Positions 461-64,000 of a DNA stretch of 64,000 nucleotides are shown here, one piece after another (position 1 is the first letter of the stretch; each line of letters begins with the position of its first letter). Origin of the DNA: Rozella allomycis CSF55 (lineage: Eukaryota); NCBI GenBank assembly GCA_000442015.1, contig KE561209.1, forward strand, positions 431,607 through 495,606, in the 5' to 3' direction. The translations under genes were made by a program, and so were the position numbers. Below the pieces are notes generated by a model. That model ran no database searches. It had not been told where the DNA came from and saw only the letters and a program-made list of their open reading frames with translations.

Positions 461-969
461 TGTCGATTGAGAATGGATTATCCTCCGTTCTATTTATTGA
501 TATCTCCTTTGAGTTTTATATGGTTGATTCTTTCTATAAATAGTATCCTATTTATAGATCTATCATATTAAGAAATCCATATTGAGTCCTCATCAATGAG
601 TATTGAATATGTGTTAGTTATCACTAGACGAACCTTAATAGCTTTATTAAGGTTGTGATCTCTATGCTATCGTCAATGACCTTGGCAGGGTATTGTCTAG
701 CATAACTTATCCATATTGGATCTTCATGAATGAGTATGAAATCTATGTTAGTTATCAATAGAGAAACCTTAATAGCTCTATTAAGGTTGTGAACTCTATG
801 CTATCGTCAATGACCTTGGCAGGGCATTGTCTAGCGTAACTTAAGATTCAGATCCTCAATGGATGGATGTTATCATTGTATTCAGTACTACTGAGAGTAC
901 CTTCAGATATATGTCAGGGAGTTAGTACTTATGCTACCGTCATAGACCCTCTCTGGGCCAGGAATGACA
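461..969 (-). mobile_element. LTR (3' LTR of a minus-strand LTR retrotransposon)
   Basis: Inverted ends TGTC...GACA. A purine tract abuts it on the minus strand. Its sequence recurs at 4361-4391, next to Gypsy integrase sequence, and at 14787-14870. Confidence 0.75.
587..843. repeat. ~134-bp direct tandem duplication inside the LTR
   Basis: 587-709 and 721-843 are near-identical (AACCTTAATAGCT.TATTAAGGTTGTGA..TCTATGCTATCGTCAATGACCTTGGCAGGG). Confidence 0.85.
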
Positions 970-981
970 TTACCCCCTTCC
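970..981 (-). other. Polypurine tract (GGAAGGGGGTAA) preceding the LTR
   Basis: Minus strand reads GGAAGGGGGTAA immediately before TGTCATTCC. Confidence 0.65.
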
Positions 982-1064
982 AGTAGTTGGAAGCGTTTAC
1001 TGATTTTGATATTTCCTATCTGTTTCCATAGTTCCATTCCTGAAAATGTGATTGTTTGAAGTTG

Positions 1065-1160
1065 GTAGATATAATAATGTGTAAGGAAGTATCATTCGGA
1101 ATGATTACTTGATTATATGGGTGTTCATGTGGATATAATAATGTGCAGTGCGAGTATCAT
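1065..1160. repeat. Degenerate ~65-bp minisatellite, array 1
   Basis: GATATAATAATGTG...AGTATCAT units; the same family occurs at 2118-2350. Confidence 0.65.
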
Positions 1161-1344
1161 ANCAGTCCTCTTATAAATTTAGCTGTTGCGTATGCGTATC
1201 GCAAAATGATTTCAGAAACAATTTTCAAAGTTGCATGTCCAACCCTGGTCCTTAAAATAGATACCAAAATTCTATTCCATCGTTGTTTTCAATGATTTGA
1301 GCAAATTCTTTTGATGGTAAATCGTGGACCCCTATCTATTCGCA

Positions 1345-1700
1345 AAGCGGTGGCAACAATNTTTGGCCATTTTATCTGCCTGCGAGTTCATTTAGCTCAA
1401 TGCCGGAGTTTGCATTTACTTTAACCAATGTTGTTGCGGCCTGGCGTTCCGCTAGTAGTTTACGGAGTAGCAGGCGGATGCCCAAATTGTTTGTTTTCAA
1501 CAGTTCCCGGTTAGTTTGGGGCTGTTGGAGGCGTTTTATTATTTCCATAGTTGTCGCCGAATCAGTGTGGATTGTGAGGGGCCAGTTGATTGGGCTGAAC
1601 CATCGGTATAAGCTAATGTGTCCACCACCGGAAGTTTGGCAGGTGCGCACGAAGTAATTGAAGGGCATAGTTGTTGCCGGCGTTTAGGTATCGGTCTTGC
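1345..1700 (-). pseudogene. RNase H domain fragment, probably from a non-LTR retrotransposon
   Basis: LAYTDGS in one frame, then TIHTDS...LVKVNANSGIELNELA in another. These are RNase HI motifs separated by a frameshift or deletion. Confidence 0.6.
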
Positions 1701-2117
1701 TATCATCCTCTGTTGTAGCCTTGAGGAACCGTACATATTGNAGTCAGCAACATCAGAGCAGCCTTCTGTGGAGACTTTGTCCTTGTAGGTCTTGTTGCCG
1801 AGTGCGAGTTGAACGAAATGAAGCGTCATTTTCAAAGTTGAGGTATAACTACTAAATTACTTAAACCTTATCTTAGACTTTACTTTTTGTTTGTTAAACA
1901 ACATTTTTTCCAGGTGTATCTGCATTCGTGAAAGCAGCTTATAAAACCATAAGTAGGTGAGTAGGTGAACCCAAATAAAAGAGTAGTTAAACTTTATGGC
2001 CTGTATTTTGTTTTAATTGTTTTATTCATTTTGATGCTTTATTTATTGTGATGATGTTTCACCCTGCGCTGCTTTTAGCGTCCATTCATACACTAAAAAC
2101 ATTNATTTGTAGTATAT

Positions 2118-2350
2118 ATAGATAATAATGTGCAGCCAAGGATCATACGGGATGATTACTTGATTATTATGTGTATATTTATTGTTAGTGGATATAATAA
2201 TGTGTAAGCAAGTATCACTCAAAGGGATCACTTGATTATAATATGGGTTTTCATGTGGATATAATCATGTGCAGGGCGAATATCATGCGGCATGGCTAAC
2301 TCGATTATTATATTTGATTATTCGCAAGGATAAAAATGTGTAAGCGCAAT
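2118..2350. repeat. Degenerate ~65-bp minisatellite, array 2
   Basis: About 4 diverged GGATATAATAATGTG..ATCA..GAT.ACTTGATTAT units. Confidence 0.65.
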
Positions 2351-2365
2351 TATGACTCGGAGTGN

Positions 2366-2668
2366 GTTATACCCCACTCCTCCAGTCGCACCAATAATTA
2401 AAATTAATCATCCTCTTTACCCGCCAACATCATAGTCCAAGCACTTAGTTGATCTTTACTTTCCACACGATGCATTCTTGTGAAATGACCCATCATAGAT
2501 TCGTATATCGCAAACCATGCTGCACAGCCTATACTTTCTTAAACGTTATATTACCAACGGTCTCTCGTAACATTGTTCCCAAATGCCCGCTATACATTCC
2601 ACTCAATCCACCTCGTTTAACAATATTCTTAAAGCAATCAAATGATCCCCTATGTTCAACTTTGCTAA
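2366..2668 (-). CDS. Internal fragment of a mitochondrial carrier gene (ornithine/carnitine carrier-like), bounded by Ns
   Basis: Spliced translation RGSFDCFKNIVKRGGLSGMYSGHLGTMLRETVG-CAAWFAIYE...WTMMLAGATGGVGYN, with two short introns. Confidence 0.75.
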
Positions 2669-2779
2669 NGTCTTCAACCTTAATCTACCTGTCGCGGCTT
2701 TTCCAAGCTGACGATCCTATGCTGATTTCGTCTTTTTTCCCAGTATTTTTGAATCGGTCTATTATCATGGAAGTCTTCT

Positions 2780-3900
2780 TCTTGAACTCACTCGTTATGG
2801 GAGTCATCTAGATTCTTCCATTGCACCAAGTATTTATCTTTATTGTTATTCATTCTCCTATGTTGTAGGATCTTTTCCAATTTGTGTGCAGAAGTGTCTA
2901 TATTCGGGATTATCCCCTTAAAAGGTTTTAAGACATGAGGAGGTCTAGTGTATAAAGTTCCATCTGATCCTAGTAAGATGTATGCCCCTCCTTTGTTTCG
3001 TCTTACAATTTTGAATGTCCCTGTGTAGAAGGGTTCTGATTTCTTAGACCCCCTGTGTCTGGATATTCTGTTGACTTCGGGATATACAATCTGTCTCATG
3101 TAATTGAGTCTCTGTATCAACTCTTTTTCAGATATTTCTTGAAGAGTTGTTTCATTATTGAAATCTTTGAAGTAATTCGGTCTTCTCGCGATCATTAAAG
3201 AAAATGGAGTGGACTTGGTTGTGTCGGACAGTCTCAAGTTTAGTATGTATTGAGTCTGATCAATAAAATAATCCCATTCTGTATCTTTTCCTCTCAAATT
3301 CTTGTAGAATGTATTCGCTACTGTCCCAATAAACCTTTCTGCTATTCCATTAGCTCAAGGGTTGTACGGTGTGATGAACCTTTGATTAATGTTTGATAAT
3401 TTCATCATTTCGGAAATGATTCTATTAAGAAATTCTCGACCGTTGTCCGGTCGAATGCTCTTTGGGAACCCAAATTAAATTCACAAAACAGAGAAAACAA
3501 TGTGGTTGCTATTGTTCTCATTTCCTTATCTTGTAGGGCTCTAAGAAATATAAATCTTGTACAAGTGTCAACTATAAGTAACAGTTACTTTTTTTTCTTT
3601 TGGATAATGGAAATTTTTTCAAGTCCATAGAGACCTCGGCGAATGGTTACATACAAGTTGTGGAATTCAACGGATGAAATCCAATTGTTCCTATGTTGAA
3701 CCTCTGACAGTGACAGCCTATGCATTTCTGGACTAATTTTTCACAGTCATATCTGATGGATGGCCATTTGAAGCCCTTCGACCTTATCTGCGTCACCAAT
3801 GATTTCTCCCCAAAATGTCCTATTTCATGAGCTTGTTTAATTAGATTTTCTCGTTGTTCCAGAGTTGGATTTTGTAAAGAATCCTCCTGGAGGGTTTCAA
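2780..3900 (-). pseudogene. Gypsy integrase (zinc finger, DDE core, GPY/F) plus C-terminal chromodomain
   Basis: AHEIGHFG...C..C; PFYTGTFKIV; LEKILQHRR...YLVQWKNLDDSHNE. Confidence 0.85.
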
Positions 3901-5799
3901 CAATTTTAATCTCCTTGATCGGAATGTTGATCTGTGAAATGTCTCTCACTTCCTGTTGAAACTCTAGCTCTGTATAATTGAAAAATTCAATGTTTTTGTT
4001 TTGCTTTTCTTTTGTATCAATTGTTCACACTACATATTGATTGTATGAAGGAATGTTTCTATTCATCTTCACAAATGTTTCTTCACTAGTCATGATTATT
4101 ATTGGATTCGAGATTGCGTATCCCTTTAACAATTTAGACCAAGATTCACTTTCTTTCATCGGTGTTAAAAGTGATCCCTTTGATTTATCCATGATTAATT
4201 TCACTAGACGTTGGTGAATAAGATCTTCCTTGGGTTCTGTCCAAATAACTTCTTTTGCTAGTGTTGGTTTGAAACATTCTTTTTCATTGATGCAGAAAAC
4301 AGGTAGCATGTTATTTCCAGGATTAGCCAAGAGCTCTATAGAGAAGGGTCCCCTATGTNCTTATCCTCCGTTCTATTTATTGATATCTCCTACCATTAGC
4401 TCTAGGGTTATATGGTGTGATGAACCTCTGATTAATGTTGGATAATTTCATCATTTCGGAAATGATTATATTAGGAAATTCTCGACCGTTATCCGATCGA
4501 ACGCTCCTTGGGAACCCGAATTCACAAAACAGAGAAAACAATGTTGCCGCTATTGTGTTCATTTCTTTATCTTGTAGGGCTCTTAGACTTGTACAGGTAT
4601 CAACTATAAGTAATAGATACATATTCTTTCTTTTGGATAATGGGAATTCTTTCAAGTCCATAGANGGAAATGATTATATTAGGAAATTCTCGACCGTTAT
4701 CCGATCGAACGCTCCTTGGGAACCCGAATTCACAAAACAGAGAAAACAATGTTGCCGCTATTGTGTTCATTTCTTTATCTTGTAGGGCTCTTAGACTTGT
4801 ACAGGTATCAACTATAAGTAATAGATACATATTCTTTCTTTTGGATAATGGGAATTCTTTCAAGTCCATAGAGACCTCGTCGAATGGTAACATACAAGTT
4901 GTGGAATTCAACGGATGAAATCCAATTGTTCCTATGTTGAACCTCTGACAGTGACAGCCTATGCATTTCTGGACTAATTTTTCACAGTCATATCTGATGG
5001 ATGGCCATTTGAAGCCCTTCGACCTTATCTGCGTNGACAATGTTAATCTTCGTGATCGGAATGTTAATCTGTGATATGTTTCTCACTTCGTGTTGGAACT
5101 CCAGCTCTGTATAATAAATAAATTCAACGTTCTTGCTTTTCTTTTCTTTTGTATCAATCGTCCATACTATATATTGATTGTAAGAAGGAGTGTTCCGATC
5201 CAACTTAAGAAATGTTTCTTCATTAGTTGTGATGTCTATTGGATTGGAAATTGTATACGCCTTTAACAATTTAAACCAGGTTTCGTTTTCCTTCAACGGT
5301 TGTTAAAATTGATCCTTTTGTTTTATCCATGATAAGTTTCACTAGAAGTTTGTTTATAAGATCTTTCTTGGGTTCTGCCCAAATAACTTCTTTTCCTAAT
5401 GGTAATTTGAAACATTCNAAGAATGTTTCATCATTAGTTGTGATGACTATTGGATCGGAAATTGTATACTCTTTCAACAATTTAAACCAAGTTTCGTTTT
5501 CCTTCAACGGAGTTAAAATTGATCCTTTTGTTTTATCCATAATTAGTTTCACTAGAAGTTTGTGTATAAGTTCTTCTTTGGGTTCTGCCCAAATAACTTC
5601 TTTTCCTAATGGTAATTTGAAACATTCCTTCTCATTAATGCAGATCACAGGTAGTTGTTATTTCCAGGATTAGCTAAGAGCTCCATAGAGAATCAGAAAG
5701 GTCCCCTATGTTTTTCAATCCTTCTGCAGATCCTGTCTGATAACATCAAGGGTTGTTAACAAGTCCTTCTGCTTTATGTATTTTCATGATCATAGGTTG

Positions 5800-8100
5800 T
5801 TCACCTTCATTCAAAGGACTAGCGTCGTAAATTCGACTTAGTCTGTCAGGGAGAATATTTAGTATTCCCGGCCTGTGTATGATTTGGAAATCATACTACA
5901 GTAATAACGCCATCCAATTGTTCATCATGGCATTGACATGCTTTTGTGTAAAAAGAAAAGCAAGAGCTCGATGATCTGTATATAGGGTAAAATGGCTTTC
6001 ATAAACATAGTTATAAAAGTTCTTTAAGGAAAATATAGTTCCCGCTAATTCTCTCTTCGTTGCAATGTAGTTTCCTTCTCCTTGAGTTAATGCTCTTGAA
6101 GCAAAACAAACATATTGATCTTCGCCATCCTCTTGCTGATAAAACACGGCTCCGAGGCCTCTGCTGGAAGCATCAGTGGCAACAGTAAAAGGTTTGTTAA
6201 AATTTGGATGCCTTAGCATTATTTGACTCCAGAGGACATCTCAAATTGTGTCATATATTCTCTGATATTCTCCTCTAAACCACTTTCTTAGCCGTTCGTT
6301 CGCAATTTATTAAATGGTTGTGTGAGCATGGAATAATTTGGTATCATGTCTCTGAAGAAATTAAAGAATCCCAGCTGCTCAATCATATGACCATTGACTG
6401 GTACTTCCCAGTCATCCATTATTNTCATAAACATAGTTATAAAAGTTCTTTAAGGAAAATATAGTTCCCGCTAATTCTCTCTTCGTTGCACTGTAGTTTC
6501 CTTCTCCTTGAGTTAATGCTCTTGAAGCAAAACAAACATATTGATCTTCGCCATCCTCTTGCTGATNGAAAATCCTGTCCGATAACATCAATGGGTTGTC
6601 TATAAATCCTTCATCTTTATATATTTTCATGATCTTAGGTTTTTCATTTTCTTCCAAAGGACTAGCGTCGTAAATCCGACTTAATTTGTCAGATAGAATG
6701 TTTATTATTCCCGGTCTGTGTATGACTTGGAATTCAAACTCCAATCATAAGTCTATCCAACTATTCATCATGGCATTGACATGCTTTTGTGTGAAAAGAA
6801 ACCGCAAGAGCTCGATGATCTGCATATAAGGTAATTTGGCTTCCATAAACCTAGTTATGAAACTTTGTTAAGGCAAAATAATTCCCGCTAATTCTCTCTT
6901 CGTTGTACTGTAGTTNGCATTAATGGGTTGTTAACAAGCCCTTCTTCTTTATGTATTTTCATGATCTTAGGTTGTTCACCTTCTTTTAAAGGACTTGCAT
7001 CGTAAATCCGACTTAATCTGTCAGGAAGAATATTTAGTATTCCTGGCCTGTGTATGATTTGGAAATCATACTCCAGCAATATATCCATCCAACTGTTCAT
7101 CATGGCGTTAACATGCTTTTGTGTGAAAAGAAAAGCAAGAGCTCGATGATCCGTATATAGGGTAAAATGGTTTCCATANAATTTCCTAGCTTTTCGCAAT
7201 TAATCTAGTGGTTGTGTAAGCATGGAATAATTTGGTCTCATATCTCTGAAGAAACTGACGAATCCCAGCTGTTGTTTAATCATATGACCATTGATTGAAA
7301 CTTCCCAATCATCCATGATTAATAGCTTTTCCGGCACAATAGTAATTCCATTTCTGTATATGTTGAATCTGAGAACATGTTCTCCAACCCGTGATATTAC
7401 CAGCTACATCCTNATGAGTTAGTGCTCTTGAGGCAAAACAAACATACTGATCTTCACCATTCTCTTGCTGATAAAGCACAGCCCCGAGGCCTCTGCTTGA
7501 AGCATCTGTGGCAACAATAAAAGGTTCGTTAAANGTAGACGGTGTGCAATCTGGTATTGTTTCTTGAAGGCTGGAGGGTTGTCGCCTGTATCGATCCTTA
7601 TAAATGCATTAGGAAGCGTAAAACATCCTTTTATGGATTGATTGATCCTTAATAGGGGCTCTAAATGATCTTTCAAATGATCGGCATATGCCTCAGTAAG
7701 AAAATCGAAGTAGGTTGAATTNCATGATTAAGAGCTTTTCCGGCACAATAGTAATTCCATTTCTGTCTATTTTGAATCTGAGAACATGTTCTCCAACCCG
7801 TGATATTACCAGCTACATCCTTCTTGGCTACAACGACTATTCCATTCAGAATGCCCATTCAGCTCCTTAATCAAACTATCTTTCTTCCATTTTTCAACTT
7901 GTGAGGTAACTATCCGTCTTAGACGGTGTGCCATCTGATATTGTTTTTTGAAGGCTGAAAGGTTGTCACCTGTATCGATTCTTATAAAAGCGTTTGGAAG
8001 TGTACAGAATCCCGTTATGGATTGATTGATTTCAAATAGGGATTTTAGGTGATCATTCAAATGATCGGCATATGCCTCAGTAAGAAAATCGAAGTAGTTT
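5800..8100 (-). pseudogene. Gypsy RT/RNase H fragments (several copies)
   Basis: ORFs 5896-6219, 6412-6744, 6888-7199, 7419-7676 and 7806-8060 carry RT and RNase H motifs. Confidence 0.85.
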
Positions 8101-9329
8101 GAATGAATTTGTTCTATTTCCTCTCAGAATTAGATTGTTTGTTGAAGGTGTGGTTTAGGACCAGTGTTTCCCTTCTCTTTAATATCTTCCTTGGCTACTT
8201 GGCTCCTGCTTGTCATTTGAAAAATAGACTCGGAGTCCTTCAAACGACAATTCAAAGCTTAGACATTGTATCCAGTCCTAGGACGATATTAATGGTAGTG
8301 CCATTATTGTCGCCCATTTTAAGGACCTCAACGCGATGCTTAATATTCTTTTCCCTTTTTCGTAAGGTTGTGCACATTTGTCACAGAGATTCTTGACAAA
8401 AACTATTCTGGTTTCTCTTCTCCTCCGTTTTCCCTGAGTTATTTCCCTTCCGCCCTTGCGCGCTCTACAGTCCTCACTGTTATGTCGGACTCTTGGATTT
8501 CAAGGTGTCTACCTCTGGGGTCAGGTCCCCTTCGTTCTCGTCTTAGTCGACTTCGTCGATAGAGTCCATCTCCATTACGTCGCCCGCTTCTCTTTCAGTA
8601 GGTAGATGTTCTACCGGCACTTCTATTGAAAAGGTTGAATCAGGTGTAGATTCGCTCATCCTTTTGTTTACGTGGTTACCCTGGCTCGTATCACTAGGGC
8701 AATAAGAGATCTGGAAATTTAGTAATTCCTCTCTCGGTTACCTTATTTAAAGTAATTTCTCTTACTTGTCCAACTTTCTAATGAATGGATGGATGGATGT
8801 CTTAAGAGATGAAAGTAAGATGAATTAAAACCAATCAAATAGAGATTGAGGTAGAAACGANCTTTCACTACAGTCATTTCCAGTGTAAAAACAGAAATAA
8901 ATAGAGTGTAGCACATAAACGGGGCTCTTCGCGAATTAGAAATCAGGATTCTTTAAATGTTTTTTGATTCATCGTTTTGCTTTCAAACATATTGCGAATA
9001 CATTGACCTTTTTTGTTGAACACGTATAAAGGGCTGTTTCATGTTGCTCCGTCTCTGCTTTGATCCTTGCAGAAAAGGGGTAATTTAATAAATTTCCTTA
9101 ATTTTTTAAGGAAATTTGCTCCGCTTTCTAGCGGAACAAAATCATCTCCGCCACAAAGCGGAGCATCTACGCTTTCTCTCCTTTTGCACACCAAGCAATA
9201 ATTTTTTAGACATATTATATTAAAATATTTTTGATCACATTTTTCAACTTTTGGCAGCTCCAGATCGTTGTTAATTGCATAAAATTAGTTTGTTTTGTAT
9301 TTATTGAGTTGAGTCATAATTTGAAAACT

Positions 9330-10490
9330 GCGTTTGGTTCTACTAGTGTTAAAATTGACAAGTTGGTAACCATGATGGCTTTAAGTAAACTAGATGGAAA
9401 TTTTTATCATATTCGTAATTTGCTTGAAACATGGGACACGCATTTGACAATCGATGATATAGAAAGAAGATTGCTAAATGAAAGAATCANCAATTCGGAA
9501 ACATGGATGGGGTTCGAAACATGCACCTAGACGTCCTAAAGCATCATAGTTTGCCACTATACCACCGGACAGTCTGAAGTAAGATTATCGATTCTACTTT
9601 TCGATGTTGCAATAACGAAGAATTTCTGATATTTTTGATGCTTCATTAGGCTTTAAAACTAGTTTTTACTGACCTATATATTTTTGCATCCAGTCGGTCT
9701 CATACGATAGACGATACTTACCATCTTCAGGTTTTATCAATGCGAGAAATATGACGTTTTAATGCGAGCGAATCGAGTNCGGGTACACACTTGGTGTCCC
9801 TAGGTCAGGTCAAGACCAAATACAACTTGCATGTAGCTAACGTGCGTATAAATTGTACTCAAAATGGATGGGTTATTGGGGCTCATGTTTTTGAACATAA
9901 TCATCCTCCATTAAAAGAAGTTAACGTTGACGTATTAAATAAATCTGCTTCTGAAGCTTATATGTCTTTTCTGTGCGAACTGCGAGTCTGGTTCGAATAT
10001 TCATTTGACAAAAACTTTATCGTGTATTACTAATACTAGGCCTTCGAACATTACTAACTCTACTGCTGGTCAGTCTACAATATCAACAAAGTCAGTAGGA
10101 AGGTTGANTAGAGTCAGTCTACAATATCAACAAAGTCAGTAGGAAGGTTGAACTCTGTCTCAAACATAGAATTTGTTCATTATTGACCTCAAGTATCAAA
10201 GTCTATTATTAGTGCAGGAAGATTGTGTGACGCGGGAAGTATTGCTATACTAAATGAAAAACGTTGTTATGTATTGAAGACAAAAGATGAGATAATTGGT
10301 GCTATTGGGAATATTATTGACTCAAGTTCGTCTCAGAATTTATTGATTTTGCAAGGTTATAGAAGCTCAAGTGATTCATTGTATAGAATTGATTTGCCCC
10401 TTGTACATGGTGAGACATATTCTGCCTATACTTCACACCAACCAAATAAGCTAACCTTATCTGAACTTCAATATAGATTTAGGCTAAAGG
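9330..10490 (+). mobile_element. Ty1/Copia remnants (gag UBN2-like and pre-integrase region)
   Basis: MMALSKLDGNFYHIRNLLE...LTIDDIERRLLNE; KSIISAGRLCDAG...ILQGYR..SLYRIDL...LSELQYRF. Confidence 0.65.
9791..10033 (+). pseudogene. Possible FAR1/MULE-type transposase fragment
   Basis: W-V-x-HNHP motif (GWVIGAHVFEHNHP) only. Confidence 0.3.
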
Positions 10491-11709
10491 ATATTACACC
10501 CCGGGTGCTAGCACACCCCATAGGTGAAACGAAATATGCTTGGTTGAATGGAATGGCAAGTAATGCGCATCACTGGTGCGAGTTAAATCCATTTCGGCTG
10601 AGTGAAAACTTTAAAATAGATTACTTTCGAGAAATCTACGTTTTTTTTAATATTTAATTATTTGGTGTGAGACTTTTGGATGATACTAAATCAGCTGGTA
10701 CAGGTAGGATGTTGGGGAGTTGGTATTTTCGCATCGTTACGAACGTCAAGAATATTCCGGTTTGATTTAGTAGTCACTGGTGCGAACATTCTGGGCTTAT
10801 ATGCTAACATATTCCTCTCTACATTTTGTCCTCTTTGAGTTTGATTTTTCTGAATATTCTTGAATAGGATGGACCGATGGTAATAATATCCTTTATATGC
10901 ATTACATGCGACATAATCTGAGTGTGTATAGATTACCAGGTTCACCCGATTTCTTAAATTTTGTAGGTAATTTTGAAATCGATTTTTTGACGATGTGATC
11001 CTACATCCTTAATAAATACGATTTTTGAATTATTTGTATATATTTAAAAAGAAATATCTACACTTTTTTTCGGAATAATCCAAGTTCAAAAATGGGTTAC
11101 CTATCAAGGCTTGGGCTGAAAAACTGAAAAATAGAGCCAACAAAATTTCCAAGTACTCATCCACCGAATGGCAACAGGCATTTCGAAACTACACAAACAG
11201 AATCAAAACAGAACCACCGAATAAACAGATGCTTTACGACAATAACAATTTTGACTTTGAAGTTGCTGAAGATTTATGATAATGTGAGTACTGAATGCGA
11301 GGAAGATTCCTTTTCCTATAATAGAAAGCAACAAGCCGAGCGATTGCGTTGGATATCATTTATCAATCAAGCCAGATATTCAGAAGTAAAACATGCAGCG
11401 GTAGAGCATGTTCTATCTTTGACTGACATGAACCTGCAAATTGCCGATGTTCATCCTGCCTATTAAATCCCGTTTTCTGTAACAGTCATGGTTCATTGCA
11501 TGTGAGTAATATGATGATGTGCTTAGTAGTAAATAAAAAGCAAGAATTATCAATATATCAATTGCACGGAACGGAGTCTGTGAAGAATTTTCTTTTGGCC
11601 ACCGTAAACGGTTGGAATTACGTGTTGACGATGCCCGTTGACGAATTACTTGCGCTCAGCTTCTTCGGGGAATCTGACTGTTGCGTTTCATTGAGCATTG
11701 TTGGAATCG

Positions 11710-12290
11710 GGGTGGGCAATGTACCTAAGGGGTTATAACCCTTGTCAGCATGATAAATATTTAGGAAAAGATAGGAGCCAGTTTCCGGTATCATTGTTCT
11801 CACGGCCAAACAGGCCAACATGGCTCGTACCAGACACATCCACGGCTCAGAGTTGTTTGCGTGACGGAAGAATGTTGGTTCACCTAATAATGACTTTGCA
11901 GCAATGTACCTCCTGCTTAAAGTGGTTTTCTGTAATTTAAAACGAGTGTCATGGTACTAATTTAAAATGCGGTAAAATTAATATGTCTCGTTTCAATTTG
12001 AAGCACTTCCTGTATGTTAAAAAAACGATGAAACGTTATGACTGCCAGACAGCGAAATGCGAGAGGTAAGGCCTGCGTTCTCAATAATAGATCGGTACGA
12101 TATTTCAAAAACCACGCTTTTAGATCTTGAGAATTAATGTTGATGTTGCGCTCGTAGTCTTGCTGCTCTCGTGATTTTGCCCTTTTGATTTTTAAAGAGA
12201 TCATGTTGTGATAAAGTATTTGCATAGGCATGGATTGCCTATGTTGGCATTCTTTAACTTTATGTACATCTCCGAGCCTATAGGTCTTAA
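11710..12290 (-). pseudogene. Degenerate tyrosine recombinase (DIRS/Crypton-like)
   Basis: GNPCL..., MISLKIKRAKSRE..., FHRFFNIQEVLQI, LVLNYRK, EPWMCLVRAMLA..GSYLF. These resemble fungal transposon tyrosine recombinase motifs; stops and frameshifts are present. Confidence 0.6.
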
Positions 12291-12791
12291 GAAATCCATG
12301 ACGTACTATTCTAGATTTATGACTATTGGAACATTCGTAGACTGGTTAGAATCATGATTTCCAGAAAATTTCCTGGACTCCCCAAAGGTTCGTTTCAACA
12401 CCGATCGAGAGTTTTTAGAAATGCATGTCAGAGTTATCTTGAAAACATTACATAAAAGATCGACGCACTATTTGGGACCAGTATATGAGTAAAAACTGTC
12501 AGGACCCCCAAAAGGGAGTTTCAACAGAGCGTTTTTACAAATGATTGTCAGATTTATGTTAAAACCATCGCATAGGTCATCAACGCAGATACAAGAAACA
12601 CCTTTCGGAACCCTAAAGTAAGAAATGTATGATATCGAGGAAGTCTTCGAATTGTGCAAAAAAGGTAATTCCTATGACTGAAGATGTCGAAACTGTTGCC
12701 GCCATGTGCCCAATTCCAAGGGTTGTGCCATGATACACATAATAGCTATCCTGACTACAGGCGTCATCTGTATGTTTTGTGTGGCTATGGC

Positions 12792-12823
12792 ATGAAATGA
12801 AATGAAATGAAATGAAATGAAAT
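12792..12823. repeat. (ATGAA)n microsatellite
   Basis: About 6 perfect pentamer units. Confidence 0.9.
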
Positions 12824-13179
12824 TTATTTAACGAGGGGATTCCGNTGTGGCTATGGCATTCATGAGGGGGTCGGGCAGCTTGTCATAGTAAGACGGCAGG
12901 TGGCTCTAAAAGCATTTCCTCTAGCAAATCCCGTAAACGGGTGGCCTTAAATTTTAGTGAGCGATGTGATGATAAAACAAATTGAGCCCAGAGTGTGCGA
13001 ACTATTTTATTGCTTGGAGCCCACTAGCCAATGGAATGATTTTGGAATCTAATTTAAAACGTGTTATTGAACTTGATAAGGACAAAAACGACAAATTGTC
13101 ACGAACGATTTCGCCATCCGATTTGCTGTCGCAATTGTCAATACGAATTGATGTGGATTCCATTATCAAAGTCAAAAGT

Positions 13180-24103: not shown

Positions 24104-27100
24104 ATGCCCAAAGAAAAAAAGGAAACACAGCAGACTTTGCAGTTATCTTCTATTCACAAACAGTCATTAAATGAAGTATTCATTATTATTCTTAATTGAT
24201 AGAATGGATGGAAAGTTTGCAAAATCTTTCTCTATTCTGATCCAAACTCTATACCACAAGTAGATTAATGATAATATTAAAATGTAATAGAGCGGGAAAC
24301 AGGCAGATATATTAACTCAATTGACTGATACCATACTAATCGGCAATAGGCCTCGTTTTTCGTATATAAATTCAAAAGATATTATTCAATTCATACTAGA
24401 AACTGCCAAGATCTATGATTGTTCTTTTGCTGCAAAGCCAATAATTGATAGCAATGGAGGCAAATTGGATGGCATTTCTGCTGAATTGCTCGCAAAGGTT
24501 ATAAAAACTTACTTGCTGGTGTTGAAAAAGAATGCACTTGAACAAAAGGCGGCGCTAGTAATGAATTATTTAAATATATTTAGGCTGCTCAAGCGAAAGC
24601 GGAAGCCGAAGCAATGGCCCTAGAAGCTGATGCCAAGAAAAAGGGGGTTAGAAGCAAATCACCAACAAAAGCAAAAGGTAAAAAGAGTTTTGTTTATAAC
24701 ATAGGTAAAAATATAAAATGTCTTTGATTTGATGAACCAGGTTCAGCGGATAAGAAAAAGAAAAAGCCAAGGGAACGAATAATTGGTGATGAACCAGCCG
24801 AGGGGCCGAATGTTTATTATGTTTTTAGAGATATGAATGTCGAAGTAATTGAGTGGCTGGAAAAGGAATGCGATATTGGAATAGATTTGTGTTATTGCCA
24901 AGGGTCCAAAGTTGAAGAATTGAACAAGGTAGTCTTGAATGAGAAGAATACCGATTCTCTTATTAAACAAATGATAGTTAAACAAATTCCAAATGACATC
25001 AATGATGGAAAAACTTTATTTGATAATTTGGCCAAGACTATTTATGACATTTTTGAAAAGAAAAAGATGTGGAAAACATTGTATGAAAGAACCAAAGTTT
25101 TACCAGTTAACAAAAAGATTGAGAATGTAGATATGAGGTAACATTAATTAATTTTGATAAAAGATATTACAATTCAATCTTAAATGATGTTCCCATGGAG
25201 AGCGTGACTGTAGAATTGATAATTGAGGCGATAATAGAAGACGTCATTCATGGGGAAGAAATGATTAAACAATCACAGCTTTTAGATTCTGAATCTGCAA
25301 ATAATTTAACAAGCAATATCTTCAAAGTATACACAGATTACTTGAATGTTCATAATACAGACAGTTTAACAAACAACAACTACAACTTTGCTTCAGAAGA
25401 AAGAAATTTGCCAGTTATAATGTTTGGCGATGAGCTGTTTGAAAAAAGTCAAAGCATCAAGGGGAACATCAAGTTTGAAGTGTTGAATAAACTAGAGAAA
25501 AACAATATTATAGAATCCAAATATGATAGAGTAGATTTGAACGATACATTTTTGAGAGGAGATGATTCGAATGTGAAATACAAAAAGTTAAACATGCTGT
25601 TTGGAGGCCAATGTGACCCCTTGACTGAAAGGCAACTGATACTATTAGAATTTGAAGCAATAATGGATTACATCAAGGGCCAAAGAGATGATTCAGAGGA
25701 ACAATCATCAAATCATGAAAATGAAGAGATTACAGTGACAGTAGAAGATGAAAGCAAAACAGAAAATGATAGAGTTGAAAATGTTGCGTTAAATTCCAAT
25801 AACTCATCAAATGCTAATGCAAATGCTAATGCAAATGTTTCAAATAATTTAAATCCTAACAATTTAGGATTTAATGGATTTTTTGAGCAAATTAGAGATG
25901 TTCCTGTAAATTTAGTTCCATCAAATCAGCCAGCCATTCCTTCTGTTCCCATCATCATAACCGAAAATGAGAAAGAAATACCTGTAAAGAAAATTAGATT
26001 CCCTAAATTTGACTCTAGCCAATACAACATTCATGAATACTTGGACCCAACAGTTTTTAGTCAGGTAAAATGATATTAACAATGCCATCTATTTAGAGAC
26101 TGCAAGGGTTGATTAATGAATTTCCAAAACTTTATATTCAGGAATACCCCGACGAAAGATTTAAGCTTTTAGTATTAAAAGAATTCAACGATCAAGATAT
26201 TCAAAGTGATTTAGCCAATGGAGGACCATTAAAGGAAACAAAACAAGGCTTTTTAAACCATGGCCATAACTGTTACGAATACAATGTTAAATATTTTCAT
26301 TCATTTAGTAATTTTTATGATAAAGTTATAAATAAAAATATTCCAATATCTGAATTTATTTGTGGCAATCAAATTTTGGACACAGGGGACTCCCATCTTG
26401 TGGGTGGAGACGATAATCAATCATTTTACCCCTGTGATGGCTCCCAAATAAAAATTCAGAATTTCCATTCAAAAAATAATTCATTTAAAAGAAAACTAGT
26501 TCTTTTTAAGAATCATACATTTTCATATCAAAACAAAATCTTTTCAGCACATTTTGATGATGACACAATAATATCCATTTCAAAATCACCAAACAAGAAA
26601 TTGTCTATTGCATTAAATGATGGGACTTTGGTTGAATTGCTAGCAGACGGTAGCATTCTAACAGTTGATCCAGTGGAATCGGACGAAAATTTTAAATTTT
26701 GTGTAATAAAAAGGAATGGATCTCTTTATTATTTTAATGAAAATTCCAAAGAAGGAGCTGTCTATTTAAATAATGGAAAAATAACAAAAACTAATCACCT
26801 TGGTATTTCTAGTGTGGTTGAAATGGATGATATACCAGACAGTCGAATTAATAGTAATAATGATATAAACAAATCAGCTTCAAATTTCAATCAAAATCAA
26901 TTAATAGTCCAACATTTTCCTGAACATAATCAAACAATCGTTACTAGAGGCGACTTGACAGTAGCCACTTTACAAGGATCCACATTAACAGTAGAATATC
27001 CAAACTCAACAAAAATTACTACTACATTGAAGAAACATATTAAGTTTTCAAAATCTGAAATTGATTTGAATTCAACAAATCAAATATCCGTTGAAAAAGG

Positions 27101-43253: not shown

Positions 43254-46549
<3,296 letters not shown>

Positions 46550-53853: not shown

Positions 53854-54763
53854 CAAGAAGTCCAGGTGGCGTTGTTTGGTTATTAATTTGAACGTGGGTG
53901 GCGAAGCAAATTTAGGCCAAATTTTAAATTAGCAATTATTGAGAATCAAATTTTTTTATAGAAATAAAGCGAAAGGCTAAATTTATCTCGGTAGTATATC
54001 CCATCTACGCTATTGTATTCAAATTAGCCATCATTTACCTCTGGGACATTAGACTTTTAACGGAAAAAATCTATTTCAACTTAATTGGCATTTTTGGCTT
54101 CAAAGTCTTAATATTTTTTTATTTACTCGACAAATTCAAGGCTATTGAGGGATGTAGAAGTGAATGGCGAGAGCCGATGCTCACATTGACGTTTTGAACT
54201 TAGACATACGATGACCATAGTCCATAGTACATACTAAATGTTTATTTTTTACAGAAAATAACGGTGACTATTTAATCTATTTAATAAATCAGTGTCACAC
54301 ACGTATTTCATGCCCTTGAGGTTGTCTTGAAGAATTAAGTATTTCTTGAGAAAAACCTCCAACTGCCATGACCAATTACCATGGAAAAAGCGGTAATTGG
54401 TTCAAGTCAACGCTTTTTTCGCCTTCCTTTGACGAAGGATCACTAAGCCAAGTTCAGCCACATTTGTTCAACAACAATTGACAAAAGTCTCCAAAAATAG
54501 CTTTTGTGCAGTCGATAATAATTAATGATTATATTGTATTGATTATGTTGGTAGTCCTTTAAAGTTATGGGTAACAAATCAATAAAATGTTAATGCTTTC
54601 ATTATATCATATTTTCAATTCATAGTGCATTTGAGATTGCCCTGAGACACAAATTTTCGCTGAATTACGTTTTGAAGATGTAATTAAATGATTTGATATG
54701 TTTACAGATCACTTGTAAATGTGAAAATTCCGAATAGGCCGGGGCCAGTAAACAATTGTGAGA

Positions 54764-56880
<2,117 letters not shown>

Positions 56881-56917
56881 ATAAATATTACCTTTCAAAA
56901 TTTAAAACTAGTTTTAT

Positions 56918-57823
56918 TCATTTAAAGTCATAAGTCATGTTTCGTACTTTGGCATTAACATTATCTTTTGGTGTATCACTGTTAGTTTGAACATTGTTGG
57001 AGCTAGCTGTGGCCGACTTTTGCGACGACGAGATCGATGTAGTAGATTTTTGGTTACTTGTTTTAGTTGAAACTGCATTGAGTTTTGATTTCTGGTTTGC
57101 ATTTGAACTTTGTTTATTTTTTGCTAGTTTATTTGAAGAAACAACGAATGCGTCAGAAGAAGCCAATATATCCTTTGACGCAGATTTTTTCTTTTTGGCT
57201 GAAGAATTTCTATTCTTTTTCGAATCTGTAGCGGCTGCCGAATTATCTCTAACCTGCCTCTTTTCCTCCGTAATTTTGAAATATTGTATCGGTACCTTGG
57301 TCCAGTGTTTTCTTTAATTCCTCGTCGCTTGTAACTTGCGAGGGCATCATGCCGGCATTATTTGGAATTAGAGCATTTACGCCAGCGCTGAGCAAGTAAT
57401 CAACTGCTTCATTTTGATTCCCGACTGCAGCGAAATGCAGAGGTGTTGAACCGTAGTGATCCTGTTTGCTTAAATTTGCAACAGAGCCATGTTGAACCAA
57501 GGAAGATAGAATGCTGTTGTGGCCGTTTGTAGCCGCCCTTTGCAATTAATGTGGTGTGATTACCAATGAAAAGGTGTTGTTCCATAGGAATCTTCGCCTT
57601 GAACAATTGCACCGTTTTCAAGCAATAATTTGACAATCTTGTCGTAACCGAATTTAGAGGCTAGAATTAGAGGACTATTTGTGTGATATAATATTTTTTA
57701 CGTTGTACCATTTGATTTTGATTTGCAGTTAATGTTTACGTTTTGCCAGATGCATTGGTATACTTTTTCAAAGTCGCCCTCTGCGCATGCATGTAAAAGG
57801 TCATCTTCATTGTAAGGAGCCAT
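56918..57823 (-). CDS. Ankyrin-repeat protein with K/S-rich tail
   Basis: TPLILASKFG, TPFHWAATNGH, TPLHFAAVGN. Confidence 0.85.
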
Positions 57824-58014
57824 GAAAACAGAGGAATGTAAATAAACAAAAAGATTAAAGATAATAAAGGGAATTGATTACTGAATAATGAATTCATAAC
57901 TTTTATATAATTTTCATACTAGTGTAATTTCTATTGACCAATTTAAGTTAATTTTCACCTCAAAATTAAAAGGGGTAATTCTAGAAATTTCCATTTTGCG
58001 AGAACCCTTGTAAA

Positions 58015-59831
58015 ATGCAGCAGCAGCCAGTGATAGTTTTGAGTAAATTAGATAAATGTAGGATAATAGATACAAAAACGGAGCGAACCCAAGGACGCAG
58101 TGCGCAGAATGCGAATATAGTAGCTGGCAAGACGGTGTCTGATATCATAAGAACGTGTTTGGGGCCACGGGCGATGTTGAAGATGTTATTGGATCCTATG
58201 GGAGGGATAGTGTTGACAAATGATGGGAATGCGATATTGCGCGAGGTAGAGGTAGCGCATCCCGCAGCGAAATCAATGGTAAGGGATGATGAAGAGTGAT
58301 AAAGATTGAAATAGCGAGAACGCAGGATGAAGAGGTTGGCGATGGAACTACGCAGTGATAGTGTTGGCAGGAGAGATATTGGCGAGGAGTGCGACGTGTT
58401 TGGAGAAGAATGTGCATCCTGTGATTATAATAAAGGCGTATAAGAAGGCGTTGGAGGAGTCTTTGAAGGTTATTGAGGAGATTAGTTTGAAGGTTGATGT
58501 GAGTAAAGAAGAGGAGGTGTTGAAGGTGATTAAGAGTTGTATTGGAACCAAGTTTAGCAGTAGATGGAGTGATTTGATGTGTTCGTTGGCATTCAAGGCC
58601 GTGAAGACTGTTTCTATTGATAATGATGGGGTTAAAGAGATTGATATTAAAAGGTAAGAGTGAAGAATGGATGAGAGAATAGATATGCCAGGGTAGAGAA
58701 GATACCAGGGGGAGAAATTGAGCAGAGTGAAGTTTTGGATGGAATTATATTGAATAAAGATGTGACTCATCCAAAGATGAAGAGACGAATTGAAAACCCT
58801 AGAATTATCTTGTTGGATTGCCCATTGGAGTATAAAAAGGGAGAATCACAAACGAATTTAGAATTTTCCAAAGAAGAAGATTTTGCCAGGGTGTTACAAA
58901 TTGAAGAGGAGCAAATTAAAGAGATTTGCGAGAAGATTATTTCATTGAAGCCAGATATTGTTATAACAGAAAAGGGTGTGAGTGATTTAGCACAACATTA
59001 CTTTGTCAAGGCTAATATTACAGCGTTGAGAAGAGTTAGGAAGACAGACAATCATAGAATATCGAGGGCAGTTGGGGCAACGATTGTTAATAAAGTGGAT
59101 GATTTGAAGGAGAGTGATGTTGGAACAAAATGTGGATTGTTTTACATTGATAAGATTGGAGATGAATATTTTTCATATTTTGTTAAATGTAAAGAACCAA
59201 AAGCATGTTCAATTATTCTAAGAGGAGCTTCTAAAGATATTCTTCATGAAATTGATAGAAATTTACAAGATGCAATGGCAGTAGCCAGAAACATTGTATT
59301 CAATCCAAAACTATCACCAGGTAATGAGAAATGTTAAATATTTTAATTAGGTAATTAATTCTTTTTAAACTTAACTTCAGGTGGTGGTGCAACTGAAATG
59401 GCTCTAAGTGTGAAATTGGCTCAAAAGGCTAAAGAAATTGGTGGGATTGAACAATTCCCATTCAAAGCATTAGCTGAAGCATTTGAAGTTATTCCAAGAA
59501 CTTTAATTCAAAATTGTGGTGGAAATGTTATTCGTTTGTTAACTCTTTTAAGATCCAAACATGCTTCTAATCAAGGTTCATCATTTGGTGTTGATGGCTG
59601 TGATGGAAAGATTGTTGATATGAAAGATTATGGAAGTATTTCATTTCTCTTTCAATAATTCTAGTTTGGGAACCAAGTGCTGTTAAAATTCAAACTATTA
59701 AAACTGCTATTGAATCTGCTTGTCTTTTATTAAGAGTTGATGATATTGTTTCAGGGGTTAGCAGAAAAGATAAATCTACTCAGCCACAACAACAACCTCA
59801 ACCTGAAGAAGCTGAGCAACCAGAACGTTAA
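58015..59831 (+). CDS. CCT3: Chaperonin CCT/TRiC subunit gamma (1-nt deletion at ~58352 in this assembly)
   Basis: RTCLGPRAMLKMLLDPMGGIVLTNDGNAILRE; LNKDVTHPKMKRRIENPRI; PGGGATEMA. Confidence 0.96.
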
Positions 59832-59988
59832 TAAATTAAATTGAGGTATTAAGAGAGAGGGTTTTAAAGGGGTTGAAGGGGTTAAAATGGGTTGAGTTGA
59901 AAGGGTTAGGGTTGTATTAGGTGAGACGTGAGACGTGTGAGTACATGGATGTCAAATTAATTCAATTCAAACTAAGTCAAATCATTTT

Positions 59989-61298
59989 TTATTTATTTAA
60001 TAACTTTTCTACTCGGCTGCAAATTAGTTCAACTGATGGTAACGATCTTTCTTCATAATTCTTTGCATATGGCATTGGAATGTCTGCACCACTAATTCTC
60101 TCAACTGGACCATCCAAATAATCAAAACACTCTATATTATTCTACATGTATTCTTTAACCTTCCATTGCCATTGCACTGATCTCTGATCCAACCCCAAAA
60201 TGTGGCCATCCACCTTCAACCGTCACCAAATAGTTTGTCTTTTTAATTGACTCTCCAATAGTCTTGAAATCAATCGGTCTAATCGATCGCAAATTAATCA
60301 CCTCATCTTTAAATTCATTCTATTGTTACTTCAACACTTATTCCCTTTTCTTTCAATATTTTAGCTGCATCTATCGCTAATCCAACACTCTTTGAATGTC
60401 CAACAATCGTCACATCATTTCCTAACTAATACCCTCTATTTAATCTCTACCTGCAACTTCTACTTTGCATTTCCCTATTTCAACTACAAAATCTTCCTTT
60501 AACGCTTCTTCATCCATCTCAAATGGCACTCCATACAACAATTCATTCTCTAATACAACAACTGGATTTGGATCTCTTATTGCTGCCTACTCCATCCACA
60601 CCACATTACTCACCTTCAATAGTCCTCTAGCATCTTCACTGGAATACGGTGACACAACCTTCAATCCTGGCACCGATCCGTACCACGATGCAAAACACTG
60701 CGAATGCTGTGCTCCAACACCCGCTGCGGCTCCATTAGGCCCTCTAAACACTATAGGCACAGGCGCAACCCCTCCACTCATATACAACGTTTTCGCTGCT
60801 GAATTCACTACATGATCAATAGCCTTTATCAACCACCACCTCTCGTTACCTGCATTGAAAAATTAAACGTCATGAATTCACAAATAGGGCGCAAGCCAGC
60901 TAATGCAGCACCTCATTCACCATCTTTAACATTTTTACCTTTTCATCTAAATTCAACTATTTTACCTATTATTTCATTCTCAAAATATTACCTACTGCTA
61001 TTCCTGCAAATCCCATCTCGGTAATTGGTGTATCAATAACTCTGTTTTCGCCAAATTTATCCAATAGTCCTCTACTAACCTGTTATATTTTTTAAATATG
61101 TTTGTCTACTTTGTATGCGCCCTGGTATCTGGCTACTTCTTCGCCCATCAGAAATACTCGCGAATCACGCTTCATTTCATCTTCCATGGCACTGTTCAGA
61201 GCATCCCGCACCGTCATCTGCTATTTTTATTCTATTTAGTTTACTTTAACCTTGTCTGATAGAGTCAAAGAACGATTAAAACATCGTCTAAATAACAT
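59989..61298 (-). CDS. PDB1: Pyruvate dehydrogenase E1 beta subunit
   Basis: [60 protein letters not shown]. Confidence 0.96.
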
Positions 61299-61447
61299 TG
61301 GACCAGGGTTGTCACTAAAGCCAATATGTTTCTAGCAGTGACATTAAGATAATAAAACTAAATTGTTAAGAATCTTAAGATAAAATTAAAGAAATCAAGT
61401 TGAAGAAATCAGGTTGAACAAATCATCAAGTCATGTTGGCATGTTTA

Positions 61448-63502
61448 TTAAAAGAGTTTGATTTTATCTTTTTCGTCTTCAGACATGTCATCAAAATGAT
61501 CACGGTCTGGTGATTCTGGCTCAGCTACTACTGTCATCTGAAATTTCAAATAGGTATATTATTTACTGGAAACTCTTTCTCAAAGTCTAAACCTGCGTAT
61601 GAATCATTCTTAAGAACAACCTTGATTGGATACTTTCCTGGCGGAATGTTCAAATAAAATTGGACTTTAACCTAATTATTGAAATAAATAAATAAAAATT
61701 ACAGTCTTTGATTTCCCAACGTTGTAGAGAACTACAGGGTCACAAATTGTTCTATTTTGAATAGTAAGGAATAGCCACCAACACGAACTTTTTTCTTTCT
61801 TGTAGAATGGACAATAAACAGACTCATCTTTTGCATCATTTGTAAGAAATGATTTCAATCTGCCAGATGGAGTTTCATCATCTATCCCTGGTAAAGCTTC
61901 TGTCACATCATCAAATGAAACTGTCTCTTCTGGTGCATTTTCATCCATAATTAATTGAACAACAGCAGTAATAACAGATCCAGAATAAACATTGTCTTCG
62001 CCAAGGGTAGTGTACTTGACATTAACCTTCTTTATCACTGGGAAAGATTTCAATGCTTCCATGACCTCTTTTCTTTCTTCGCTCTTTAAATCTTTCAATA
62101 GAGTTTGCTTTGTTTCTTTTGGCAGAGAAACAAACTTTGGAATATCTAAGCCTCCTTTGGCGCCACTAATCGTCAATGACAAATCATGAGTAAGAAATGG
62201 AAGTTGCCAAAAGCTAATCGTTGGATTAGGAAGAGCTTGAATTATCATTTGCGAAACCGATATCATTGACAATAAACTCTCATGATGTCCTTTAGCCATT
62301 GCAATCTTTATCATAGTTGGAAGAAACTTTATGGATTGTTCCAGAACTTTTTGCTGCTCTTCATGAAATTTCTCTGGGACCTCAACCCTGAAAATATGCG
62401 CGTAAATTAAAGTATGAACTTTAACAGCTATAGCATTCGTGAATTTACGAGATAATTCGTAATAATATCCGTTTTTATCAGCAAATCTTTGTAAATCACT
62501 CATAAGCTTTTATATTTTAACATTATCTCTTACCTCCTTTAGTTCTTCATGATCAGGAGTAATCAACGTTTCAAATTCAGATGCGCCACTGATTGCTTCA
62601 ATAATATCACCAGGAATCATAACATCCTCAATTAAATGATAAAATGTTTTCGCGGATTTCCTGTAAACCTTCATTTTGGTGTATTTTTTCGATTTTGACC
62701 ACCATTGACCCTGGTTAACAAAACAAGTGGCTTTGTACAATTTTATAAGGCATAAAAACTGCCATCAAGATTCCATACAGAAATAAAACTTTAAATCCAT
62801 TTTCCTGAGAAACAACCCATGCTGGAAGCGCGATGCCTAAAGAAAATGCTACATCAAGAGACTGACTATCGCTTACTTTGTTGTCCATCAGGATTTCCAT
62901 ATTCTTCCCAGTTTTTACGAATATCTTCATCAGTCAATGCTTGGTAAGCCTTTGAAATTTGAATAAACTTTTCATTTGCTTCATCCTTCAAGTCATCAGA
63001 AACTTTGTCAGGATGCCTTGTCAATCAACATAACATTACGTACCATTGTTGCGACAATTTGTAAAACTTTTTCTTAATTTCAGCAGGGCTGGCAGTCTAT
63101 CTTTGAGGGACGAAAAACATTACCCTGTCAATTTCTAAAATTTTAAAGGGATCATAAAATTGATCAACTACTTCCGTTGTGTGGATCACATAATAAGAAT
63201 AGCCAGCTACTAAAATTGCAATCAAAAGTAACAAGTTCCTTTTGTTGTCGACAGGGGAGATGCTTACCAAACCCAAGTGTTCTCTTTGTTTTTACGACTT
63301 TCCAGATATCTAACTTTTCTTTGCATAGGTGGAAATTTTGAAGCCTTGCTTTTAGTGTCAACTACATTTTCTATGGTCTAAAAGTGATGGGCATACTTTT
63401 TTTAGTGCACAAGGCATAAAGGCGTTGCAAAATAAAAATCACTGATACTGTTAGAGTGAAAAACGCAAACGTTAAACCAGTTTCATCAAACGTGTACTTC
63501 AT
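61448..63502 (-). CDS. SEC63: ER translocon J-protein Sec63
   Basis: MKYTFDETG; transmembrane segments; J-domain YDPFKILEI...[23 protein letters not shown]; Brl domain. Confidence 0.92.
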
Positions 63503-63559
63503 CGAACTGTAAATTTCAGAATGATTGTCAACTTTTGAGGGATATTTCCGTTTTCAGTT

Positions 63560-64000
63560 ATGAGCTGCTTGAATCCATTGGCTATTATTGGTGCTACAGC
63601 AGTCGGAAAATCCAGCATGGCAATAAACGTAGCGAAAATAATAGGGGCTGAAATCATATCGTGTGACAGTGTCCAAGTATCATTCATAGTTTTATAAAAG
63701 ATGGTGTATAGAGATTTAACTATTGGATCTAACAGGGTTGTAAATTACGAAAATGTGCCCCATCACCTAGTAGGGTTTCTAGATCTCGATCAACAATTTT
63801 CTGCTGGTGACTTTTATCGCAGTTGTACACACTTAATAAAAGTAAAAGTTGCCCTAAAACATCACAGGAAATACAATCCAGGAACAAGGTACCTTTGATT
63901 GTTGGCGGCGCCATGTTCTACTTGAAATGGCTTTTTGAAGGCCCTCCCCCAACTCCCTTACCTACCCCGATTAAAATAAGAAAAGAAACAGAAAAATTAA
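63560..64000 (+). CDS. miaA: tRNA dimethylallyltransferase (MiaA/IPT family), runs off the window end
   Basis: IIGATAVGKS, EIISCDSVQ/VYRDLTIGS, VPHHL, FSAGDF, VPLIVGG; 2 introns. Confidence 0.88.

Follow-up and report, generated by a model that had tools for sequence, protein, structure and literature searches.

Candidate tandem mini-introns abutting at zero-length exons in two adjacent genes of Rozella allomycis

The CCT3 gene of Rozella allomycis CSF55 carries a 60-nt interruption that divides exactly into two abutting GT..AG units, and its neighbour PDB1 an 80-nt interruption that divides into three. We think it rather probable that these arrays are tandem mini-introns with zero-length exons, removed unit by unit, as the spliceosome would accept only about 24-32 nt. 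The sequence gives good support to the anatomy itself, the CCT3 60-mer being read as a putative concatemer of two independent ultra-short spliceosomal introns that meet at a zero-length exon; from the same letters we infer the use of the internal sites, the order of the steps and an upper length limit of the spliceosome. The reading is built on two clear cases in adjacent genes of one 64-kb window, by which we mean the whole stretch of DNA that was analysed.

Anatomy of the CCT3 and PDB1 interruptions

The window is eukaryotic DNA with a G+C content of about 35%, and CCT3 (TCP-1 gamma) is coded at 58015-59834 on its plus strand. Exon 3 (58683-59320, +, ending in CCAG), translated from 58684, was 100% identical over 212 amino acids to P0001, the annotated CCT3 of R. 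allomycis CSF55, and 76-83% identical to many fungal CCT3 proteins; with full-length similarity and the PF00118 domain precomputed on the matches, the host gene is CCT3. Its coding sequence is interrupted four times. Ordinary introns on the plus strand lie at 58279-58304 (26 nt, from the gene model) and at 58654-58682 and 59636-59664 (29 nt each, from the gene model and site scores). The remaining interruption, at 59321-59380, measures 60 nt from GT to AG and is split by an internal AG|GT at 59350/59351 into 30+30 nt. Unit 1 (59321-59350, +, splice-site score 15.7) begins GTAATGAG, ends AATTAG and contains an in-frame TAA; unit 2 (59351-59380, +, score 12.9) begins GTAATTAA, ends CTTCAG and has an in-frame TAA two codons in. 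The two 30-nt units with GTAAT 5' ends and AG 3' ends, set in CCAG|..|..|GTGGT, that an earlier note on this DNA had described are therefore borne out by the sequence. At 59349-59352 (+) an AG acceptor is followed directly by a GT donor, which makes this junction a zero-length exon and a candidate recursive splice site; the same arrangement occurs at both internal junctions of PDB1.

Translation of the partial products agreed with the earlier claim that retention of either unit gives an in-frame stop. Loss of unit 1 alone leaves ..LSPGN followed by a stop, and loss of unit 2 alone, or of no unit, leaves ..LSPGNEKC followed by a stop, so that either retained unit ends the frame within 2-5 codons. 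CCT3 homologues were gap-free in 119 of 119 cases over the 20 columns round LSPGGGATEM; on this evidence and that of the stops, all 60 nt must go. Removal of the 60 nt and of the 29-nt intron at 59636-59664 yielded 352 residues from exon 3 onward that are those of P0001 residues 195-546, including LSPGGGATEM, whose restoration had also been predicted. Exon 4 (59381-59635, +) accordingly starts GTGGTGGT (GGGATEM..), at a junction gap-free in all 119 homologues. In the public annotation (P0001) the 60 nt are modelled as one intron.

Coding sequence of unit length stands on both sides of the CCT3 array: a 25-nt GT..AG stretch, GTATTC..ACCAG, at the end of exon 3 (59296-59320, +) and a 28-nt one, GTGGTG..CTAAG, at the start of exon 4 (59381-59408, +). 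Judged from their sequence, these flanking stretches could be cryptic splice substrates. Further upstream, in exon 2 (58340-58352, +), a 1-base frameshift separates ..EEVGDGTT from VIVLAGEILARSATCLEK, the two parts being open in different frames. We take this frameshift, in an essential gene, as a probable error of the assembly. P0001 masks it with a false short intron, reading GDGTTQ|SATCLEK, and the conserved VIVLAGEILAR is lost.

The neighbouring gene PDB1 codes for pyruvate dehydrogenase E1 beta on the minus strand, from an ATG at 61217, and the two genes are convergent. Seven interruptions were modelled in PDB1, of which the single introns measure 30 nt (61109-61080), 26 nt (60849-60824), 27 nt (60613-60587), 29 nt (60450-60422) and, at 60329-60302 and 60159-60132, 28 nt. 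The composite intron at 60991-60912 (-) is 80 nt long and consists of abutting GTAA..AG units of 26 nt (unit 1, 60966-60991, score 13.8), 27 nt (unit 2, 60939-60965, score 14.8) and 27 nt (unit 3, 60912-60938, score 14.8). When all 80 nt are removed the protein reads GIAVG|AALAG, gap-free against P0164 from Allomyces and P0126, a metagenome protein, and the annotated Rozella protein P0124 has the same GIAVGAALAG; any unit or pair of units that is kept brings a stop within seven codons. The earlier note had presented CCT3 as a second case, independent of PDB1 and with the same AG|GT exon context. The shared context stands, being CCAG|..|GTGGT in CCT3 and GTAG|..|GTGC in PDB1; PDB1 is a real case beside CCT3 and the stronger of the two, and its array has three units (26+27+27).

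Elsewhere in PDB1, the public protein P0124 reads KEKGINEVINL at 60329-60302 and starts at MEDEM (61217-61185, minus strand); with our 28-nt intron model and the upstream ATG, both resulting stretches match P0164 and P0126. The public gene models of CCT3 and PDB1 both contain errors tied to tiny introns. The sense strand of the two genes is also unusual in composition: it is C-poor in the 5' part of CCT3 (58015-58700, +; 33% G versus 10% C) and in PDB1 (59990-61217, -; 28% G versus 11% C), where the introns are purine-rich too, and neither the 3' part of CCT3 nor its introns share this bias. As introns take part in it, the bias looks regional or transcription-linked and not a codon effect.

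Ordinary introns of the window and the chance of internal splice sites

GT..AG candidates were collected by an ORF-bridging scan with reversed-sequence controls, which at 26, 27, 28 and 29 nt returned 40, 40, 33 and 42 candidates against 16, 6, 15 and 9 in the controls. Introns were then taken from a self-built Viterbi gene finder with a flat length prior of 18-130 nt and site matrices trained on its own predictions. The intron boundaries that it sets can be misplaced by 3 nt, an example being the DEAH helicase intron near 44888. Of the 156 introns that it predicted in the whole window, 76 were 24-32 nt long and the other 80 were thinly scattered over 19-130 nt. The retroelement-rich first 13 kb were left out of the final set. 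That part of the window (1-13000) is retrotransposon-like: the minus strand carries ORF fragments that resemble integrase and reverse transcriptase, pieces of ORFs recur (e.g. 4432-4782 and 4664-4915), the reading frame is broken many times and there are 22 single Ns. Outside it, single introns (n=72) measured 24-31 nt, with a mean of 27.67, a standard deviation of 1.64 and a mode of 27. They start with GTA in 69 of 72 cases, usually GTAA; position -3 is T in 39 and A in 19, A is favoured at -4 and -5, and the interior is 82% A+T. A positioned branch-point or 4-mer motif was sought in the interiors of the 72 introns and none was found. With a narrow length distribution below about 32 nt, GT..AG ends and reduced internal signals, the introns of this window belong to the ultra-short class. 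Depletion of 3n lengths was absent (29 of the 72 are 3n). A late internal AG, at position 22 or beyond, is present in 12 of the 72, which led us to reject a strict 'first AG' acceptor rule and indicates that an internal AG alone does not force its own use. The AG|..|GT exon context found in both arrays surrounds only 2 of the 72 single introns (AG upstream in 17, GT downstream in 7).

Two putative introns of about 30 nt are mentioned in R. allomycis S23 (PMC6349667), so that the literature already knew of tiny introns in this species, if only in passing. The mitochondrial carrier gene at 20132-20052 (-) has a 27-nt micro-exon (20105-20079) between two 27-nt introns; splicing of both gives ..EGLRGLYGGYISASIGSFPGQSLYY.., a typical carrier motif, where the gene finder had taken all 81 nt as one intron.

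Outside the first 13 kb the gene finder also predicted 54 introns longer than 32 nt, which were judged by eye against the ORF table and not each against homologues. Long introns proved to be over-called by both its first and its re-trained version, which bridged intergenic DNA, frameshifts and the retroelement. The calls with good flanking exons were of three sorts: some, for instance those at 31470-31435, 62876-62837 and 35984-35923, wrongly skip coding sequence; others (21747-21703, 21503-21465, 19763-19726, 26065-26141 and 23480-23417) each combine a 26-33-nt intron with a wrongly skipped piece of exon; the remaining well-flanked ones are bridges across intergenic DNA. On this by-eye judgement of the 64-kb window, the CCT3 60-mer and the PDB1 80-mer were the only interruptions accepted that clearly exceed about 36 nt. 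There may be a few single introns of 33-36 nt (24705-24740 and near 23449), and the upper length limit is therefore not sharp.

The five array units (30, 30, 26, 27 and 27 nt; scores 15.7, 12.9, 13.8, 14.8 and 14.8) all lie within the range of ordinary introns in both length and splice-site score, the single introns having a median score of 13.0 and a 10th percentile of 9.6. We estimated analytically, with a first-order model of intron interiors, the chance of AG|GTA cuts that leave units of 24-32 nt. It was about 0.0015 for such a cut at one of the five allowed positions of the 60-mer, the one seen being at 59349-59352, and 4e-6 for two suitable cuts in the 80-mer. Among the GTA..AG segments of 52-64 nt on both strands of the window, 8 of 1014 were divisible into two units; five of these lie at the CCT3 and PDB1 loci and three elsewhere (a background of 3 in about 1009). 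Segments of 76-90 nt were divisible into three units in 3 of 1169 cases, all at the same two loci. The internal AG|GT of CCT3 is more than a chance occurrence. A scored scan for tandem pairs found 6, where 40 Markov controls had 1.15 on average and never more than 4; two of the four loci of the scan are false or unclear (19385 and 8765). The match at 19385-19328 lies inside an exon of a carrier protein and that at 8765-8711 in the retroelement region; a further one, at 60487-60426, was discarded as its first 'unit' is PDB1 coding sequence.

A possible third tandem array was seen at 24678-24740 (+), where a 27-nt GTAAAA..ATAG unit is followed by a 36-nt GTAAAA..CCAG unit (24705-24740), with AG|GTAAAA junctions and the AG|..|GT exon context. 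The first unit, which may be exon since its frame is open (GKKSFVYNI), falls in a lysine-rich, unconserved region for which three in-frame models are possible.

Similarity between the units was compared with that between unrelated introns. The CCT3 pair scored 0.167, a value reached by 36.5% of 2556 null intron pairs, and the scores of the PDB1 pairs were reached by 10-52% of the null pairs. Units that are no more alike than random intron pairs argue against a recent duplication, and likewise against the doubt raised by the earlier note that the assembly had merged two haplotypes. Under an origin by duplication, the signals at the junctions must have outlasted the similarity of the interiors, since the units have fully diverged. 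Neither array folded better than its shuffled versions (z = 0.24 and -0.13; 110 and 84 of 200 shuffles, respectively, folded as well), and no Rfam match was found in 57900-61400 at E values up to 1.

Proposed stepwise removal and rival explanations

Introns held to about 24-31 nt with little splice signal suggest that length itself is probably a recognition signal, and a length window in intron recognition is an idea cited for tiny-intron organisms (PMC5014332). Interruptions of 60 and 80 nt are far outside a class with a standard deviation of 1.6 nt, and we therefore propose that each unit is recognised and excised separately. If unit 1 of CCT3 left first, ..CCAG would meet GTAATT and a predicted usable 5' splice site would be regenerated, in the manner of a recursive 'ratchet point'. 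Our donor matrix favours AG at exon positions -2/-1, which the regenerated CCAG|GTAATT fits. This would be the likely order if splicing is co-transcriptional. If unit 2 left first, the ..TTAG end of unit 1 would abut exon 4. Either order would lead to an identical mRNA, and an intermediate that escaped the second step would carry an early stop; in both arrays, every partly spliced product has a stop within 2-7 codons. The AG|..|GT context, by which all junctions share four bases, would favour resplicing, and the AGGT repeats that flank the units may have served as sites for exact duplication or loss of a unit.

Metatranscriptome contigs with the same species label (word share 0.00) were compared with positions 54500-63900. 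They gave 18 matching pieces, in conserved parts only and none at least 99% alike (two at 95-99% and 16 at 90-95%); these pieces are foreign and none bears on 59321-59380. The sole joint, 55449/55569, came from one contig with one side of 27 letters.

Comparison of the intron position in other taxa had been called for and was carried out on metagenomes. A scan with CCT3 exon 3 gave 80 loci with 59-78% identity, which were then searched by tblastn with P0001. At the CCT3 junction 78 loci read straight through or are transcripts, and a break was found in two, the near-identical L067 and L068. Here a single GT..AG intron of 95 nt (2743-2837 in L067) with a pyrimidine tract occupies the position and phase of the CCT3 array; it is undivided and has no internal AGGT. 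L067 and L068 come from a eukaryote with 36% G+C that is at most 68% identical to any of 120 CCT3 proteins. Tiny introns were sought among the 80 metagenome loci and none was found. One locus, L002, had been considered as a tiny-intron relative and was rejected on account of its 50% G+C and ordinary introns.

The CCT3 interruption could instead be one ordinary 60-nt intron excised in a single reaction from 59321 to 59380, its internal AG|GT being either left over, unused, from an old duplication or insertion, or a decoy whose use is optional, harmless since a partial product can be respliced. We regard this as unlikely, though it deserves serious weight: the public annotation does model a single intron, the shared position and phase of the 95-nt intron in L067 and L068 make one-step removal the probable ancestral state, acceptor choice does not strictly follow the first AG, and there may be single introns of 33-36 nt. 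A site out of use would, however, be expected to decay, yet the GTAAT and TAG of the junction are intact while the interiors differ like those of unrelated introns. The low chance of such a site in CCT3, and the still lower one for the two sites of PDB1, also speak against a relic, as does the fact that no interruption beyond about 36 nt was accepted that lacks such sites.

The extra length might also be functional, either by looping out as a hairpin, so that the effective intron becomes shorter, or by housing a small RNA. Long yeast introns can contain zipper stems, and introns are known to host snoRNAs, which gives this idea its precedents. The zero-length-exon case of Schizosaccharomyces pombe lies, in addition, in a snoRNA host gene (10.1101/226894). 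We nevertheless hold a functional length to be very improbable, for both arrays fold no better than shuffles, Rfam is silent over the region and 60 nt at 82% A+T leave little room for a structured RNA. Even less credit can be given to an assembly artefact, by which a single 30-nt intron would have been doubled through the tandem merging of two haplotypes or of two reads. The assembly is imperfect, as seen from the frameshift in CCT3 exon 2 and the single Ns of the first 13 kb, but the two CCT3 units align no better than random intron pairs and a like architecture, with three different units, recurs in PDB1.

Returning to the tandem mini-introns, the metagenome loci suggest that the CCT3 intron position is old and that the Rozella array may descend from a longer intron, with parallel gain as the alternative. 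The shared position and phase of the 95-nt intron favour one of two origins. Either an old, longer intron would have been partitioned by new internal splice sites, or a unit would long ago have been duplicated exactly between the AGGT repeats found on both sides of an intron in AG|GT exon context.

A stronger form of the proposal is that the spliceosome has a hard limit near 32-36 nt, that every longer intervening sequence is a concatemer and that recursive splicing is obligate genome-wide. We advance it tentatively and consider it somewhat doubtful. If it were true, intron lengths should peak near 27, 54-60 and 80-85 nt, the concatemers would stem from partition of long introns or from exact duplication between AGGT repeats, and they would mark an intermediate stage of an intron reduction that ends in Microsporidia. 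Were stepwise removal confirmed, Rozella would offer a natural means of reading how intron length is measured by a minimal spliceosome. As a member of the sister group of Microsporidia it would also show how old introns are remodelled in a lineage whose introns shrink to about 27 nt. Gene finders used to annotate such genomes should permit zero-length exons and 27-nt micro-exons.

Comparison with known systems

Recursive splicing at zero-nucleotide exons, or 'ratchet points', is described in long introns of Drosophila and vertebrates (10.1101/006163). The Rozella arrays resemble these in having AG|GT inside the interruption, a 5' splice site that would be regenerated, a proposed piecewise removal and one final mRNA. 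They differ in scale, ratchet-point introns measuring tens of kilobases and the Rozella arrays 60-80 nt, with each piece a normal-sized intron. Either order of removal is possible in Rozella on sequence grounds and, unlike the ratchet points, the arrays are known here from DNA alone. Where recursive splicing is known for very long introns, Rozella would represent the opposite extreme, a way round a maximum intron length.

A second parallel comes from S. pombe, in which spliceosome profiling revealed two zero-length exons, one of them in the 336-nt intron of SPNCRNA.445, a non-coding snoRNA host; its authors call this, to their knowledge, the first recursive splicing documented in a yeast (10.1101/226894). 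Both organisms are fungi, and in each an intron contains a 3' splice site that is followed at once by a 5' splice site. The S. pombe intron, however, is longer than the norm of the organism and non-coding, whereas the Rozella arrays interrupt protein-coding housekeeping genes and are made of units of modal size. For Rozella, a length limit is proposed here as the cause.

Fungal stwintrons and complex intervening sequences, known from Lipomyces and Hypoxylaceae, comprise more than one U2-type unit, excised consecutively, and an origin through new splice sites inside an existing intron, 'stwintronisation', has been proposed for them (PMC7138796). With these the Rozella arrays share the presence of more than one intron unit per interruption, and by analogy a stwintronisation-like origin is plausible for them. 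They are not stwintrons in the strict sense: there, the internal intron interrupts a signal of the external one and so fixes the order of excision, whereas the Rozella units only abut, neither depends on the other, and each has a complete GTAAT donor and AG acceptor without overlap.

In intron size, finally, Rozella joins a series of ultra-short-intron genomes that includes Paramecium and Nyctotherus with introns of about 25 bp (PMC5014332), myxozoans with 22-27 bp and the likewise ultra-short introns of Dicyema (PMC13644364), and microsporidia (PMC6349667). It shares with them a narrow length class below about 32 nt and weak internal signals, and differs from the ciliate pattern described in PMC5014332 in that 3n lengths are not depleted. 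A literature search, with supplements outside its scope, returned no account of mini-introns joined in tandem, either for Rozella or for other organisms with tiny introns, and no intron-length statistics for Rozella. Recursive splicing at zero-length exons, complex fungal introns and classes of tiny introns are already known; the Rozella arrays differ from these in scale and in the cause supposed for them, their pieces being full introns of modal size and each array as a whole only two or three times that size.
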